Shown in pieces: positions 404 to 35,050 of a DNA stretch of 35,050 nt. The DNA lies in UHGV virus genome UHGV-0197915, one strand, 5' to 3'. Each line of letters begins with the position of its first letter. The stretch's first letter is position 1. A model generated the notes under the pieces. That model had not been told where the DNA came from. It made no database searches and saw only the letters and a list, made by a program, of their open reading frames with translations. Both the position numbers and the translations under genes were made by a program. The stretch is from a virus.

Positions 404-412
404 ATCCGTTTC

Positions 413-499
413 GCTGAAAAACATAACCCATAAAATGCTAGCTGTACCAGGAACCACCTCCTTAGCCTGTGTAATCTCCCTTACACGGGCTTATTTTTT
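413..499 (+). ncRNA. cyaR: CyaR (RyeE) Hfq-dependent small RNA
   Basis: GCTGAAAAACATAACCCATAAAATGCTAGCTGTACCAGGAACCACCTCCTTAGCCTGTGTAATCTCCCTTACACGGGCTTATTTTTT matches the CyaR sequence as I recall it; terminator hairpin plus T-tract at the 3' end. Confidence 0.85.
478..499. repeat. attL core (22-bp direct repeat CCCTTACACGGGCTTATTTTTT), overlapping the cyaR terminator
   Basis: Identical to 33547-33568; flanking bases differ on both sides. Confidence 0.75.
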
Positions 500-540
500 T
501 GTTCTAACCTAATGAAATAAATGGATTTATTTCTTGCAAT

Positions 541-559
541 GTCCACACATTGACCACAT
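541..559. promoter_or_regulatory. Putative integrase arm-type binding sites (TGTCCACA-cat-TGACCACA direct repeats)
   Basis: Two 8-bp direct repeats ~45 bp inside attL; the same octamer is repeated at 33437-33455 at the int end. Assignment as P2-type Int arm sites rests on a consensus recalled from memory. Confidence 0.4.
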
Positions 560-563
560 CGAT

Positions 564-2407
564 CGAGTAGGAGGCGGGATCACTCCCGCCGTCCTCTCAC
601 ACCACCGTACATGCGGCTCCGCATACGGCGGTTCATGTTAACACTGGAACTGCCTCTGCTGTTCCAGCAGTGATATCAGACCCTGCCTGCTGAACCACGC
701 ATTCTTTATCGCCTGATTCATATGGCTTGACCCTGAGTTCCACCATGGCCCGTGGTTGTTGTACGCTGAGATCATCGCCCTGTCCTTACTCAGCCCCGCT
801 CTTTGCAGGTTCTTCGTCCGGGTTCCCGGCCTCTTCCACTGCCGCCACAACAGGCACCGCAGTTTCCGTTTGATCCAGCCGTCCAGCTCTTCCTGCACTC
901 CTCTGACTTCCGTCAGCCTGAAGTAGCTTATCCATCCACGCAGCACTGGCGTCAGGGCATTGATTGTCGCTTTCACTGATTTGCTCCGGTTTCCCGTGGT
1001 CAGACTGCGGACTTTCTCCTTCAGCCTGTTCACGCTCGTCAGGGCTATTTTCAGCTTCGCCTGTTTGTGCCATGTCACACTGTACCCGAGGAACTTCCGC
1101 TCCCACGGGCGCGCCACCGCGCTCTTCTTCTCATTCACCTTCAGTTTCATTTTGTTCTCCACGAACGCCCTGATGTTCTTCAGCAGATGGTCGCCCGCTT
1201 TCCGGCTGCTTACGTTGATGTTGCAGTCGTCTGCGTAGCGGCAGAAGCTGTGTCAACGACGCTCCAGTTCTTTATCCAGTTCATCCAGCAGGATGTTCGA
1301 CAGTAACGGCGACAGCGGGCCGCCCTGCGGCATGCCCGCCTGTCCTTTATCGTTCTGGCCAGACGCGTCATCAGGAGCCTGTGATCCACCCGGTCAAAGA
1401 ACTTCTCCAGATCCATATCCACCACCCACCGTTTGCCGCCCCGTATGTAACGCTGTGCCTGTTGCACCGCCTGCCATGCGTTGCGCCCCGGCCGGAAGCC
1501 GTAGCTGGAGTCTGAGAAGCTTTTGTCCACGATGGCACTTAACTGCTGCGCAATCGCCTGCTGGATAAGCCTGTCCACCACCGTCGGGATGCCTAAGGTT
1601 CTCACGCCGCCATCCGGCTTCGGGATATCCATCCGGCGTATTGCCCGCGGCTGGTAGTTTCCGTCAATCAATGCCTGCCTGACACTGCGCCAGTTCTTCT
1701 TCAGCCACGGTTTCAACTCCGCCACGCTGAGGTTATCCACCCCCGCCGCGCCTTTGTTTTCCACCACGCGCTGATAAGCCAGCATCAGGTTTTCTCTCGT
1801 TATCACCGCTTCCATCGTCAGCGGCACTTCCGCTTTCGTTTGCCCACCCGCCGCCGTGCTGATTTCAGCGCCATCATGCAGCCCTGACGGATACCGTCCG
1901 TCTCCTCTGCCGCTGGCCGCAGTTGCCTGCGCTTGTGCTTCATTAATCATCATCGGGTTCGGATGTCCTAATCACGGTTAATCATGTTCGGCCCTTCATG
2001 CTGCCGGTTTTGCAGCACTACTACGGCGTCGGCTGACTTCTGCCGCCCCATCCCGGCACCTTACGACGCCGGTAGCACACTGGCAGGACGGCAGTTCTCC
2101 CGGGGTAATTCGCGCGACTTTCCTGCTTATGCCTGTCGGCTCTACGTTACAGCGTTCCGTGTGAGTATCGGGCTTTGGTGATGTATGCCACCTTACCCCG
2201 CTGCGCCGCCTTAACCGCTTCCTGTTCGTCAGGCCAGCATTTTGCATCCGGCTTCCTTCAGATTTCACCTCGCGATGAACACCCTTGCCTTCCGCTAACA
2301 CTTCCCCTCACCGGGTGTGTGGAGGACTTTCACCTCTTAGTCGTTCTTCAGCCACCACAGTTGAAGAACAGCGCCAGTCACGGCGCTACGCGCCATGCCC
2401 GGCGCAC
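564..2407 (-). mobile_element. Group II intron (bacterial class C-like placement), degenerate
   Basis: 5' end GTGCG (reverse complement of 2403-2407) 8-9 nt after a terminator hairpin; domain V-like hairpin near 605-640; RT/maturase ORF inside; intron-free version of the 3' flank present at 33601-33620. Confidence 0.7.
638..1953 (-). pseudogene. Group II intron-encoded reverse transcriptase/maturase, disrupted
   Basis: RT domains 0-4 in ORF 1210-1953; frame breaks near 1331-1345 where ~25 aa before the xPQGGxLSPLL motif are missing; in-frame TGA at 1253-1255 before the YADD motif; maturase domain continues in ORF 638-1162. Confidence 0.75.
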
Positions 2408-2410
2408 ATA

Positions 2411-2450
2411 CAAAAAGCCCCGCAAATGCGGGGCTTTATTTATAAAAAAA
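2411..2450 (-). terminator. Rho-independent terminator (bidirectional hairpin GCCCCGCAAATGCGGGGC flanked by A/T runs)
   Basis: Perfect 8-bp GC-rich stem at 2416-2434 followed by TTTTT on the minus strand; lies downstream of ogr and the 69-aa ORF. Confidence 0.6.
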
Positions 2451-2540: not shown

Positions 2541-2750
2541 TTAGTTATCAATAGATAACTGTTTCATCATCTCTTCAGTAAGCTTAAACGAGCGCATTGT
2601 CAATTCTGCATGACGACGCATCAGATCAACAAAGCCGGGATTGGATGAGTTTGCGCAATTTGTTAGTGCTTGATTTGCCGTTAGCATAGAAATCTCTTGA
2701 AGTTGCTCATTTATTTCTCTGGTTTTTTGCATATATTCATCAAAAGTCAT
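2541..2750 (-). CDS. Hypothetical small protein (69 aa)
   Basis: AT-rich ORF between ogr and the terminator; no recognisable motif. Confidence 0.4.
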   Translation of the reverse strand: MTFDEYMQKTREINEQLQEISMLTANQALTNCANSSNPGFVDLMRRHAELTMRSFKLTEEMMKQLSIDN

Positions 2751-2852: not shown

Positions 2853-3074
2853 TCACATCCATTGAATTTGCTGCTGACCTGACGTTGTTGGATGCGGCGG
2901 CGCGGGTACTACCTCGCCCGATGATACGATGAAACGCTCGACTGTTTCAGTGGTCACAAACGTGCAACTGCAGTTGATGTTTGTGCACTGGTGATACCGC
3001 TCTTTTGTGGTATCAGTAAAATAGCGACTCGTGCGGGCGTGGGCGGCATGATGGCATTTCGGACAATGAAACAT
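2853..3074 (-). CDS. ogr: Ogr/Delta zinc-finger late-gene transcription activator
   Basis: MFHCPKCHHAAHARTSRYFTDTTKERYHQC…SGQQQIQWM closely resembles P2 Ogr as recalled; start placed at the Met preceding FHCP. Confidence 0.85.
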   Translation of the reverse strand: MFHCPKCHHAAHARTSRYFTDTTKERYHQCTNINCSCTFVTTETVERFIVSSGEVVPAPPHPTTSGQQQIQWM

Positions 3075-3155
3075 GATGAGGGTCTCCGGCGTATTCAATG
3101 TGTTAATTTTACTCATTTTTCACTTATAAAACAAACACATAATTAAAACACATCG

Positions 3156-10187: not shown

Positions 10188-11872
10188 TATGCGAGTCTCA
10201 CGATATAGTTAAAGGCGATGTTTTTGATGGTGTTTTCTGCATTACCCGACGCGGCGATCGTAATGGTGTGACCGTGTGCGCCAATAGCAACGGAGTGCGA
10301 GTGTGCGCCAATCCCGACATTATGATTGTGGGCACCAATCGCCACGGTATGCGCGTGATTACCTGCAGTTGATGTTGTTTTCGTTCCCGTCGCTATTTCG
10401 TTACCGTCGGCGGCCTGTCCCCCGGCCTGATCTCCCCGGTGTACGGTAAAAGTGTGCGCATGGTTGCCGGTTGCATTAGTGGTTTTTGTCCCGTAGTCAA
10501 AGGTCGTGGTGGTTTTCGTTCCGTGGTCAAAAGCACTGGTGGTTTTCGTCCCTAAATCGGTGCTCGATGCGCTGGCACCGTGGGCGTGCGATTTAATGCC
10601 GTCCTGCTCCTGAGACAAAATAGCGCGCCCACTTGCGGGTTTACCTTTGATTGTCCAGCCCCGCATATCAGGAATAACACCCGATGGGTACACCACAGCA
10701 AGCAGCGGATACGCGGCTTTATCAAAAGTTTGTCCCTGCATGACGGCATAGCCAGCAGGAACACTGTCAGACGGCCACGCAACGGGAGCGCCTACCGGAA
10801 AAACATCATCAGGCGTCCACGGTGTCCATGCGCCTGTTGAATACTGGCTGCGCGAGTAGCTCCGGGAGCTGTTATAAACCCGGTATACCTGAGTCACTCC
10901 GGCATTTTTATAAATGACCAGCGTCCCGGCGTTATTTTCAGGGTAATGTCTGGCGGCTGAGGTATTAGAATTCGCTGGCTGAAAGTAAATACCCGGCGTT
11001 TTAAGGGTGTCTAAATCCTCCGTTATCAGCCCAATAGCCTGGTCGTCGAAAATATCCTGCGAGGTGACACTGGTGTCAGCATTCAGGGAGTGTCCGTTAA
11101 TTTTGCGCGAGGAAGGAACGCGGCCATCAGCATTATCATTCGCCGCTTTCACCGCTTTTGGCGTTGCGGCGAGCGTCTCAGACACGCTGTCGATGGCGCT
11201 ACTGAGCTGAACAATCCCTTTCTGCGCCGTGGTCGCGTCCTGAGCCGAGTATTTACCTTTCGCAAGGTCATACGCCGCCTTAACCGCTTTCGGTGTCGCG
11301 GCGAGCGCCTCAGACGTGCTGTCGGTCGCACTGCTTAACTGCGTGAACCCTTTTTCTTTCAGCGTGGCGTCAGGATGGCGGCGGGACTGCTCATGCTCTG
11401 CGAGTTTGTCGTCGACATAATCCTGCGTCGCCATCACCAGCGTGGTATCGATGGACAACTCGACCGTGTCGATATCACTCACCATGATCACCATACGCAG
11501 CGTCTGCGCACGACCTGATCCTTCCGCCAGCTCGGGTTTGTAGCTTTCGGCCATATTGCCGACCGCAATCAGCGTGCCGGTGTCATCGTAAAGCCCCATT
11601 TCACGCAGCCAGAAACCGCCGGTCTCCGGGGGGATCACCAGCTCCGCCACGACATAATTTTTATGTTTTTTGTCCTGGCTGATTTTGTTCAGGACATGAC
11701 GCCAGACCTCATTGACGAGTTTTGTCTGGCTGGCGTCCGGTTCGGGCAGTTTTCCGCCGCCGTCCCCGACGGCCATCACAGCAAAATTGACTTTCTTCCC
11801 GTTCGGGAGCGTCGCCGCCGCCAGTTTTTCCGCACCGGCTCGGGTGATAACGGTTTTATATTTCACTGTCAT
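10187..11872 (-). CDS. H: Tail fiber protein gpH
   Basis: 561 aa; internal duplicated [11 protein letters not shown] segments; C-terminal His-rich GxHxH repeats. Confidence 0.85.
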
Positions 11873-32448: not shown

Positions 32449-33462
32449 ATGTCTGTTAAAAAGCTCGATGATGGTCGTTATGAAGTGGACATTAGACCTG
32501 CAGGGCGCAACGGAAAGCGCATCCGCAGGAAATTTGACAAGAAAAGCGAAGCTATCGCTTTCGAGAAGCATACCCAGTACAACCATCACAACAAAGAATG
32601 GTTGGCGAAACCGACAGATAAGCGGCATCTGTCAGAGCTAACAAAAATCTGGTGGGAGCTGAAAGGCAAGCATGAAACTCACGGCCGAGATTACCTGGGC
32701 AAGATAGAGTTGTTCACAAAGATAACCAGTGACCCTTGTGCCTTTCAGATTACTAAGTCATTGATAAGCCAATACAGCACTGTGCGGCGTTCTCAAGGCA
32801 TCAAGCCATCGAGTATAAATCGTGATTTAACGTGTCTTAGCGGGATGTTTACCGCGTTGATAGATGCGGAGCTATTTTTCGGGGAGCATCCTTTCCGAGG
32901 TCTTAAAAGACTCAAAGAGGATAAGCCAGAAACCGGCTACCTGACGCAAGAGGAGATCGCGCTTCTGCTGTCAAAAGTGGACGGTGATAATAAAAAAATT
33001 GCGATTCTTTGCCTTAGCACCGGCGCGAGATGGAGTGAGGCAGCAAAACTGAAAGCGGAAAATATCATTCAAAATCGCGTCACTTTCGTTAAGACAAAAA
33101 CCAACAAGCCGCGAACCGTTCCTATATCCGAGGAACTGGCAACAATGATCACAACGGGTAAGCGTGGCTATCTGTTCACTGATGCTAACTATCCCGCGTT
33201 CAGACGGCTAATGAAGGAGCTGAAACCCGACCTACCACCGGGTCAGGCTACGCACGCATTGCGGCACAGCTTCGCCACGCACTTTATGATAAACGGAGGC
33301 AACATTATCACGCTTCAGAGAATACTTGGGCATTCAAGAATTGAGCAGACAATGACATATGCGCACTTCGCCCCTGAGTACCTACAGGACGCGATAACGC
33401 TTAATCCTCTACGTGGTGGTGTTGGCTCTCAGAGTGTCCACACAGTGTCCACAGTAGGGTAG
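32449..33462 (+). CDS. int: Tyrosine integrase
   Basis: Start at MSVKKLDDGRYEVD preceded by GGGAGG; C-terminal R…HxxR…Y catalytic region (HALRHSFATH … MTYAHF); 337 aa. Confidence 0.85.
   Translation: MSVKKLDDGRYEVDIRPAGRNGKRIRRKFDKKSEAIAFEKHTQYNHHNKEWLAKPTDKRHLSELTKIWWELKGKHETHGRDYLGKIELFTKITSDPCAFQITKSLISQYSTVRRSQGIKPSSINRDLTCLSGMFTALIDAELFFGEHPFRGLKRLKEDKPETGYLTQEEIALLLSKVDGDNKKIAILCLSTGARWSEAAKLKAENIIQNRVTFVKTKTNKPRTVPISEELATMITTGKRGYLFTDANYPAFRRLMKELKPDLPPGQATHALRHSFATHFMINGGNIITLQRILGHSRIEQTMTYAHFAPEYLQDAITLNPLRGGVGSQSVHTVSTVG
33437..33455. promoter_or_regulatory. Putative integrase arm-type sites (TGTCCACA-cag-TGTCCACA) overlapping the int 3' end
   Basis: Exact 8-bp direct repeat ~95 bp from the attR core; same octamer as at 541-559. 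Confidence 0.4.
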
Positions 33463-33546: not shown

Positions 33547-33568
33547 CCCTTACACGGGCTTATTTTTT
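33547..33568. repeat. attR core (22-bp direct repeat CCCTTACACGGGCTTATTTTTT)
   Basis: Identical to 478-499. Confidence 0.75.
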
Positions 33569-33726
33569 ATGCATAAGCCCTATCCCTGGTCACCGTCTTC
33601 CATTGACCACATCGATAGAATCTCCCTTCATAGCACGATGCCTTTCACGTAACGGCATCGTGCTCGCACAGGTTCCGGCTAAGCACAACCAGAACGCGCA
33701 TGTTTGACGCTTACCAAAAAATATTC

Positions 33727-34044
33727 TCACTCTCCACATTTGAATGTCAGACGAGCGACGCCATGTAATCCTGCACCTTCTGTCTTCAGGTCAACTATCT
33801 GCATTTTTTTGCCCTGAGTAACACAGAAATGGGCTGCATCATTTTTTACTATATTTTCTGCACCAGATATTCTGCCCCTGGCTAAAGAAGCTTCGGCTTC
33901 GGTGTAGTATTGGTTATCGAGTTTACGCTGAATATTACTTTTATATGCAAGACCAAATTTACCGATACTTGTCTCATCATTATGCACAGCACAACCAGAC
34001 ATAATAAAAATACTAATTAATGATATAGCAGCTATCTTTTTCAT
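33727..34044 (-). CDS. yegR: Lipoprotein YegR
   Basis: Start at MKKIAAISLISIFIMSGC (lipobox); 105 aa; synteny with yegS. Confidence 0.8.
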   Translation of the reverse strand: MKKIAAISLISIFIMSGCAVHNDETSIGKFGLAYKSNIQRKLDNQYYTEAEASLARGRISGAENIVKNDAAHFCVTQGKKMQIVDLKTEGAGLHGVARLTFKCGE

Positions 34045-34458
34045 CTCACCTTCCCCCATTAAATACCAACGACACTCTCTAGTGTTTAAATATAATAATG
34101 GCATGATTATTATAATTGAATAGGATTATAATAAATGTTCTGTACAACATTTCCTACATAAGTAGGAATTACGGACATTGAGGCCCTTCAGGGTAACTCC
34201 ATGGGGGCTTTAATATATTTGGAATAGTATATTTAAGATGCCACTGTTTGGTTGAATATTAGGCATATGCTCTTTTTTGAAATTTATCGGTGGCAGCCGT
34301 TAGTATTCGCTGTCCCCATTGCAAGCTCCTGGTGGTAACCACTGAATCCTCCATACTTGAACTGACTTTTTATCCTCCGACTTTCATCCTGTTCTGACTC
34401 CACCTTTTGTTTTCTGCTCTACACTATCTACAGACCAATCATAAAGGCACATACGATC

Positions 34459-35050
34459 ATGGCAGAATTTCCCGCCAGCTTACTGATTCTTAATGGCAAA
34501 AGTACTGACAATCTACCCTTGCGCGAAGCAATTATGCTGTTGCGTGAGGAAGGAATGACGATCCATGTGCGGGTCACCTGGGAGAAAGGCGATGCCGCAC
34601 GATATGTAGAGGAGGCCCGGAAGTTGGGCGTCGCAACGGTGATTGCCGGTGGTGGCGATGGCACCATTAATGAAGTTTCTACGGCGTTGATTCAGTGTGA
34701 GGGGGATGACATACCCGCGCTGGGAATTTTGCCATTAGGAACCGCCAATGATTTTGCCACCAGTGTAGGGATTCCTGAGGCACTGGATAAGGCGCTGAAA
34801 CTGGCAATTGCCGGTAACGCCATTGCGATAGATATGGCGCAGGTCAACAAACAAACCTGTTTTATTAATATGGCGACAGGCGGATTTGGGACGCGTATTA
34901 CCACAGAAACGCCGGAAAAATTAAAAGCCGCGCTGGGTGGCGTCTCTTACATCATTCATGGCTTAATGCGCATGGATACTCTGCAACCGGACCGTTGTGA
35001 AATCCGCGGTGAAAACTTTCACTGGCAAGGTGACGCCCTGGTCATTGGTA
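34459..35050 (+). CDS. yegS: Lipid kinase YegS (3'-partial; continues beyond the window)
   Basis: [15 protein letters not shown]…[10 protein letters not shown]… diacylglycerol-kinase-like catalytic motif; no stop before the window end. Confidence 0.85.

Follow-up and report, generated by a model that had tools for sequence, protein, structure and literature searches.

What is the DNA that separates the right attachment core of a P2-like prophage from the host gene yegR: ordinary chromosomal flank, or debris of an earlier phage? The question arises from a window of 35 050 nt (UHGV virus genome UHGV-0197915). A sequence-only reading of this stretch had proposed that, in the 158 nt just outside attR (33569-33726), the ogr-side arm of an older P2-like element survives, next to which the current phage had integrated or which it had replaced. 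We examined the resident prophage, the flank and the corresponding locus in other genomes.

Attachment cores, arms and a displaced terminator

The P arm of P2 attP reportedly carries a pair of Int arm-type sites, and a P2-like remnant comprising ogrK and yegZ, on record since 1992, occupies the same attachment site, locI, in E. coli K-12. In the window, a P2-like prophage is inserted within the 3' end of the small RNA gene cyaR (table 1). Its att core reads CCCTTACACGGGCTTATTTTTT at both 478-499 and 33547-33568, and the 27-nt P2 core at 473-499 has the same sequence as the annotated attP of P2. At its left end the prophage carries ogr (2853-3116, minus strand) and gene D; the repeat pair AGTGTCCACACAGTGTCCACAG lies in the 3' end of int at the right end. 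Both arms have annotated counterparts in P2: the sequence of the int-side arm is that of the corresponding Int arm site, and the ogr-side arm is homologous to the protein_bind feature 'Int, P arm'. To the right of the attR core follow the 158 nt in question, then yegR and, from 34460, yegS.

Two further features of the prophage were noted. A 69-aa ORF (2541-2750, minus strand) lies between ogr and the phage terminator, where P2 and the K-12 remnant have no counterpart; it may be a small cargo gene adjoining the att site. The structural-gene region contains three tandem 30-nt units at 10479-10568 (GTGGTTTT.GT.CC...).

Table 1. Positions of the features discussed, in window coordinates.
Feature	Position	Strand	Details
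cyaR (RyeE) sRNA gene	411-496	+	Rfam RF00112, 100.7 bits; 3' terminator is the P2 att core
attL core copy	478-499	+	exact 22-nt repeat of 33547-33568; continuous with cyaR
ogr-side arm, resident phage	538-566	+	two Int arm-type repeats (motif scan), TGTCCACA at 540 and TGACCACA at 551; includes the 16-mer at 548-563
Group II intron	567-2407	-	between Int arm site and phage terminator; Rfam RF00029, RF02001, RF01998
True ogr-side intrinsic terminator, resident phage	2412-2437	-	fold dG -20.4 kcal/mol, then U-run
int-side arm	33432-33455	+	two Int arm-type repeats, TGTCCACA at 33435 and 33446, inside int 3' end
attR core copy, resident prophage	33547-33568	+	exact repeat of 478-499
Putative fossil P2-type Int arm site, host flank	33585-33620	+	27/31 identical to P2 and K-12-remnant P arms
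Hairpin, 11-bp stem	33632-33664		dG -21.3 kcal/mol, z = -5.3; 63-95 nt downstream of the yegR stop codon (minus strand)
yegR, small lipoprotein-like gene (PF27694)	33727-34044	-	islet cargo; annotation
Islet right part	34045-34344		AT-rich, 37% GC; highly polymorphic; no detectable phage homology
Degenerate 27-nt att core copy	34345-34371	+	AATCCTCCATACTTGAACTGACTTTTT; 18/27; abuts ancestral yegS leader; MAFFT-aligned with outgroup cyaR core
Ancestral cyaR-yegS spacer (yegS leader)	34372-34459	+	directly after the core in other Enterobacteriaceae; 1/88 sites vary in E. coli

Part of the earlier argument was that a hairpin in the flank takes the place of the terminator hairpin of the resident phage. 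Next to the resident arm, the stem-loop at approx. 571-595 belongs to a group II intron, as its domain VI (Rfam); the analogy was based on this stem-loop and is unsupported. The matches to all three Rfam families exceed their gathering scores and lie on the minus strand, with domains V/VI at 562-633 and D1-D4 segments at 1991-2279; the intron begins with GTGCG at 2407 and ends in ...CTAC at 567. Its RT/maturase ORF, annotated ltrA in homologous copies, is broken in two (638-1162 and 1210-1953), and the intron is approximately 73 nt shorter than the copy in strain KV7. Related copies, some chromosomal and some on plasmids, were found in 1267 of the 5426 complete E. coli genomes.

The 5' end of the intron lies 5 nt past the U-run of the terminator (GGGGCTTTTTGTAT, followed directly by GTGCG). 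The intron has moved the real terminator of the resident phage, at the same position as the P2 and K-12 ogr terminators, 1.84 kb from the arm. With the intron taken out, the arm reads ...CATTGACCACATCGATCGA joined to ATACAAAAAGCCCCGCAAATGCGGGGC, a layout that matches P2, the K-12 remnant and one Citrobacter youngae prophage. Arm site followed by terminator is the true layout of the phage family.

The arm-like stretch and the hairpin beyond attR

The repeat that drew attention to the flank is exact. The 16-mer CATTGACCACATCGAT occurs at 548-563 and 33601-33616, on the plus strand in both cases and with no third copy in the window, within one base at most of the coordinates first given for it. 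It starts 32 nt past the right core and 48 nt past the left one (47 counting the seventh T at 500). The att core aside, a k-mer census of the 35 kb returned just two other repeats of at least 16 nt. Similarity to P2 and related arms spans approximately 31-34 columns and is restricted to 33585-33620. Against the P2 or K-12-remnant arm this segment gave a local alignment score of 38, compared with 14.7 ± 2.2 for shuffled sequences, none of which (0/1000) reached 38; against the arm of a Scandinavium prophage, 29 of 34 columns were identical, with three mismatches and two single-base gaps. The shuffles and the census together exclude a chance repeat as the origin of the 16-mer. Judged by sequence, 33585-33620 is genuinely homologous to the ogr-side Int arm sites of the P2 type.

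In the P2 GenBank record (AF063097), the ogr side of attP runs from an IHF site to the Int binding site 'P arm' and on to the ogr terminator. The P2 Int site has the sequence GGTCACGTCCACACATTGACCACATCGA; the flank reads GGTCACCGTCTTCCATTGACCACATCGA at the match. When the P2 P arm is set against the flank, GGTCA-CGTCCACACATTGACCACATCGA aligns with GGTCACCGTCTTC-CATTGACCACATCGA, with orientation and side of the core unchanged. The direct repeats that make up P2-type arm sites have the consensus tgTGGaCa (PMC3448106). Unlike the P2 P arm, the flank has one intact repeat, no IHF region, terminator or ogr, and is host DNA outside any prophage. The intact repeat is the second of the pair, TGACCACA, at 33604 inside the 16-mer; the first has decayed and reads CGTCTTCC. 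Within the flank, only the site at 33604 lies within one mismatch of the consensus, one repeat where a P2-type arm has two in direct orientation. The spacing from the core is also shorter, 32 nt versus 47-48 nt in the phage arm, and the 16 nt between core and arm (33569-33584) do not resemble the A/T-rich IHF region found in P2 arms.

The proposal that an ogr-side arm survives beyond attR stands as far as a homologue of the P2 Int footprint is concerned, and goes no further: only approximately 36 nt can be shown to be phage-like, and neither an ogr nor a gene D remnant was found between attR and yegR in the window, where attR adjoins the 158-nt flank directly. For the study of P2 recombination, the match places a putative Int arm-type sequence within the classical locI substrate.

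The flank hairpin is present as described, with an 11-bp stem. It has no T-run on either strand, a terminator scan returned no terminator-like site in it, and it shows no sequence similarity to the phage terminators; in E. coli Nissle the stem is shorter by two pairs, without compensatory changes. On these grounds we rejected the hairpin both as a terminator and as a homologue of a phage terminator.

The flank and the yegR islet across genomes

The host part of a 661-nt query over attR and yegR matched 5317 of the 5426 complete E. coli genomes (approx. 98%), and prophage-free E. coli (loci L001 and L003) carry yegQ, cyaR, the identical 158 nt and yegR in succession. Since the flank is species-wide and present in prophage-free genomes, 33569-33726 is the normal right flank of P2 locI attB, at the 3' end of cyaR, and not a strain-specific leftover. 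Any remnant is old and species-wide. The sequence-only reading had opposed a phage remnant to a native flank devoid of P2-arm similarity; prophage-free strains do share the flank, but the similarity is there (27 of 31 positions). What looks like debris is thus species-wide attB flank, and calls of prophage boundaries and remnants should end at the att core.

The ogrK/yegZ remnant that the sequence-only reading placed here in K-12 is indeed present, yegZ being a truncated gene D. The order in K-12 is cyaR, P arm, ogrK, truncated gene D and a partial core, followed by the common flank and yegR, so the K-12 remnant sits to the left of the flank and is a separate, later event. It resembles the putative fossil in the flank in using the same att site, in being a product of prophage decay and in keeping the ogr-side arm, but differs in retaining a full P arm, a terminator, ogr and 213 nt of gene D and in being lineage-specific; the fossil, whose flank is present in K-12 too, is far more reduced and species-wide. 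In K-12 BW25113 (locus L002, 2791-3020), the right deletion endpoint of the ogrK/yegZ remnant falls inside the att core, with the truncated D fused to TACACGGGCTTATTTTTTT.

We compared the locus with the yegQ regions of other Enterobacteriaceae, 80 in all; E. albertii and Escherichia sp. E1V33 are the two non-coli Escherichia lineages among them. Neither the flank nor yegR had a match in any of the 80. In uninterrupted outgroup loci (Escherichia sp. E1V33, Klebsiella, Kosakonia, Citrobacter amalonaticus and many more), yegS follows approximately 80-110 nt after cyaR, and in spacer alignments homology with E. coli restarts at CGACTTTCATCCTGTTCTGAC (approx. 34379). E. coli has an extra islet of approximately 0.8 kb (33569-34344) that contains yegR and extends from the att core to an apparent, degenerate copy of it, situated precisely where the outgroup core meets the yegS leader. 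A scan of 70 048 positions on both strands found 17 or more matches to the core only at the two true cores, at 34345-34371 (18 matches) and at one site with 17. Given the outgroup spacers and the core-like sequence at 34345-34371, the E. coli islet appears to run from core to degenerate core, and any remnant probably spans this whole 0.8-kb islet rather than 160 nt.

The core copy at the right edge is strongly diverged, with 9 of 27 positions differing in every E. coli sampled. Decay in place after E. coli and E. albertii diverged would be expected to leave fewer differences, which points either to an incoming core that was imperfect from the start or to an older event with subsequent losses elsewhere. 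The islet has a GC content of 40%, against approximately 52% for its neighbours yegQ and yegS, and in 10 diverse strains 54 of 300 sites vary in its right part, compared with 1 of 88 in the ancestral spacer. Across the same 10 strains, polymorphism falls off inside the degenerate core, with variable sites up to approximately 34358 and none beyond; this switch may mark an old crossover point. No phage or integrase genes, IHF site, terminator or int-side arm could be detected in the islet, and nothing phage-like was detected in it to the right of 33620. Alignments of 34045-34344 to the int sides of P2, the resident phage and WPhi scored no better than shuffled sequences, and an int-side arm or int remnant there was rejected; a lone TGTCCCCA at 34311 is within chance expectation.

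YegR itself (PF27694) is nearly restricted to E. coli and Shigella. Homologues of the gene with 76-81% identity in other enterics lie between a glutaminase gene and nitroreductase/ivy/acs genes, followed by a gene for a 110-aa lipoprotein; more distant homologues occur on an IS-rich Enterobacter island and at other chromosomal sites, none tied to cyaR or P2. The DNA homology of these loci to the islet is confined to the yegR coding region. B2 strains such as Nissle (locus L086, 1370-1545) have approximately 170 extra nt between flank and yegR, at window position approximately 33713/33714, and these encode a frameshifted N-terminus of the 110-aa lipoprotein gene; the islet therefore formerly contained a two-gene cassette from another enteric chromosome. 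Flank positions 33621-33712 were considered as a decayed part of the same gene and rejected, since the match is of five residues only and not significant. A phage origin of yegR was also discarded. The gene strongly matches PHROG 21109, but the only phage-database records with yegR, two in number, run into E. coli flank, one of them a 34.8-kb entry that is apparently a prophage deposited with its flanks; no free phage with yegR appeared among the phage-database matches.

Comparable islets occur at cyaR elsewhere. In E. albertii NBRC 107761 (locus L008, 5534-8883), 3.35 kb lie between two copies of the cyaR/P2 core, with cdtA, cdtB and cdtC as the only genes; the islet opens with a P2-type arm truncated in its first repeat and has no other phage genes. 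It thus shares with E. coli the succession of core, truncated P2-type arm, cargo, second core and yegS leader, but its second core is intact where that of E. coli is degenerate, its arm keeps homology to the IHF region, and its cargo consists of toxin genes rather than the uncharacterised yegR. Islets of 1.8-2.6 kb between two well-preserved cores are found in Enterobacter-group genomes (L062, 5534-7345; L067, 5534-8106; L073, 5533-7423). The L067 islet retains a P2-type arm, a terminator and an ORF for a WapI-like immunity protein; the other ORFs of these three islets have no Pfam match, and tblastx of the E. albertii and Enterobacter islets against the resident prophage gave no matches. These islets show the proposed path of decay in progress, and the same passage, from prophage to a cargo islet between two cores, is seen at cyaR in several genera. 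The view of cyaR as a repeatedly used integration hotspot is borne out, with P2-like arms or core-bounded islets after the gene in E. albertii, Citrobacter, Trabulsiella, Enterobacter, Scandinavium and others.

Origin of the islet

On balance, we favour the view that the yegR islet is the remnant of an ancient integrated element with a P2-type arm that became fixed in E. coli. A P2-type integrative element would have recombined into the cyaR core in an E. coli ancestor and then lost almost everything except a stub of the arm and a cargo cassette (yegR and a second lipoprotein gene, now decayed). The stub, 16-52 nt into the islet, would have become fixed, while the left core stayed intact as part of cyaR and would have let later P2-like phages insert to the left of the fossil; because of this intact core, the later integrations (the resident phage and the K-12 ogrK/yegZ element) lie on that side. 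The direct observations behind this account are the homology of the arm, the species-wide presence of the flank, its absence from outgroups and the core and core-like sequence that bound the islet. We infer that the arm stub and yegR came in on one element and that the fossil no longer functions. The account suggests that yegR arrived as cargo of an element using the P2 site. A decayed integrative element at an att site is a well-known kind of structure, of which this would be a very reduced, species-wide new example; nothing is overturned, and the result is incremental genome archaeology. Full-text literature searches of a limited collection, which are no proof of novelty, found neither an account of an arm-like sequence flanking locI nor one that treats yegR as a remnant or as att-site cargo.

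Several points weaken this reading: approximately 36 nt alone are recognisably phage-derived, the stub lies closer to the core than the phage arm does, the right core copy is more diverged than expected, no free phage carries yegR, and two non-coli Escherichia lineages are a narrow sample. The stub and yegR may also have entered independently. In that case the yegR islet would have come by an unrelated route, and the stub later, from the imprecise loss of a P2-like prophage at locI through a deletion running from inside the ogr-side arm to past the right core. The K-12 remnant, with its truncated D fused into the core, shows that illegitimate deletions do happen at this locus; the lack of phage-like sequence right of 33620 and the chromosomal or IS-flanked, rather than phage-borne, settings of yegR homologues fit such a history as well. 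Yet it requires one event more, and the exact start of the islet at the core together with its core-like end is the pattern of a single site-specific integration. We regard two separate arrivals as unlikely.

A different proposal concerns maintenance and so does not compete with any account of origin: the conserved 30 nt might be kept by a present role, either as a residual Int arm-type site (in the choice of locI or the tuning of excision) or as a 3' element of yegR. Positions 33590-33620 are invariant in 10 diverse E. coli, while the remaining flank varies at 12 of 106 sites; with a rate of 11% over 31 sites, the rough chance of this is approximately 0.03, which hints at constraint, 10 strains being a small sample. 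Against such a role, one repeat is left of the two needed for cooperative Int binding, and P2 attB function is attributed to the 27-nt core alone. A present role is improbable in our estimation, and we give an equally slender chance to the more specific idea that the intact repeat, 32 nt from the core, still works as an arm-like contact at locI that secondary P2 sites lack. If it did, P2-type phages could owe part of their strong preference for locI to it, or it could bias recombination between attL and attR, P2 being a phage that excises poorly; yegR would then be a domesticated phage cargo gene.

The transfer could in principle have run the other way, with P2-like phages acquiring approximately 30 nt of E. 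coli flank, through an aberrant excision for instance, and adopting them afterwards as an Int arm site. The phage att core itself copies the 3' end of host cyaR, and a slightly longer capture is conceivable. However, the distribution of the motif tracks phages, not hosts. It follows cyaR within P2-like arms in Citrobacter youngae, Trabulsiella, Scandinavium and several Enterobacter-group genomes; relatives with an empty site do not have it. The same repeats occur on the int-side arm and in WPhi, which carries GTCCACATCGA, has an att core unrelated to cyaR and integrates at a different host site. The host copy, in turn, is degenerate, having lost the first repeat and the IHF region, and its flank is absent from all 80 outgroup loci. 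Because the motif is on the int-side arm, in WPhi and in genera with motif-free flanks, and because the host copy is degraded, transfer from phage to host is favoured, and we consider the reverse direction very improbable.

Least tenable is the original proposal, in which the flank is a young remnant, particular to this strain, of a P2-like prophage that the resident phage joined or replaced: the P-arm-like 16-mer and the nearby hairpin just outside attR had suggested it, but the same 158 nt and yegR follow cyaR in prophage-free strains and in nearly all complete E. coli genomes, and we give it next to no credence.

One outgroup locus shows a different kind of junction at the att core. In Enterobacter hormaechei B17-3 (CP169086.1; locus L006, 3144-5533), yegP, yegQ and cyaR are 98.9% identical to K-12 up to the last base of the core, and the sequence beyond it is Enterobacter-like (approx. 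85% identity to E. asburiae). The junction suggests an inter-genus recombination tract whose breakpoint is the P2 att core.
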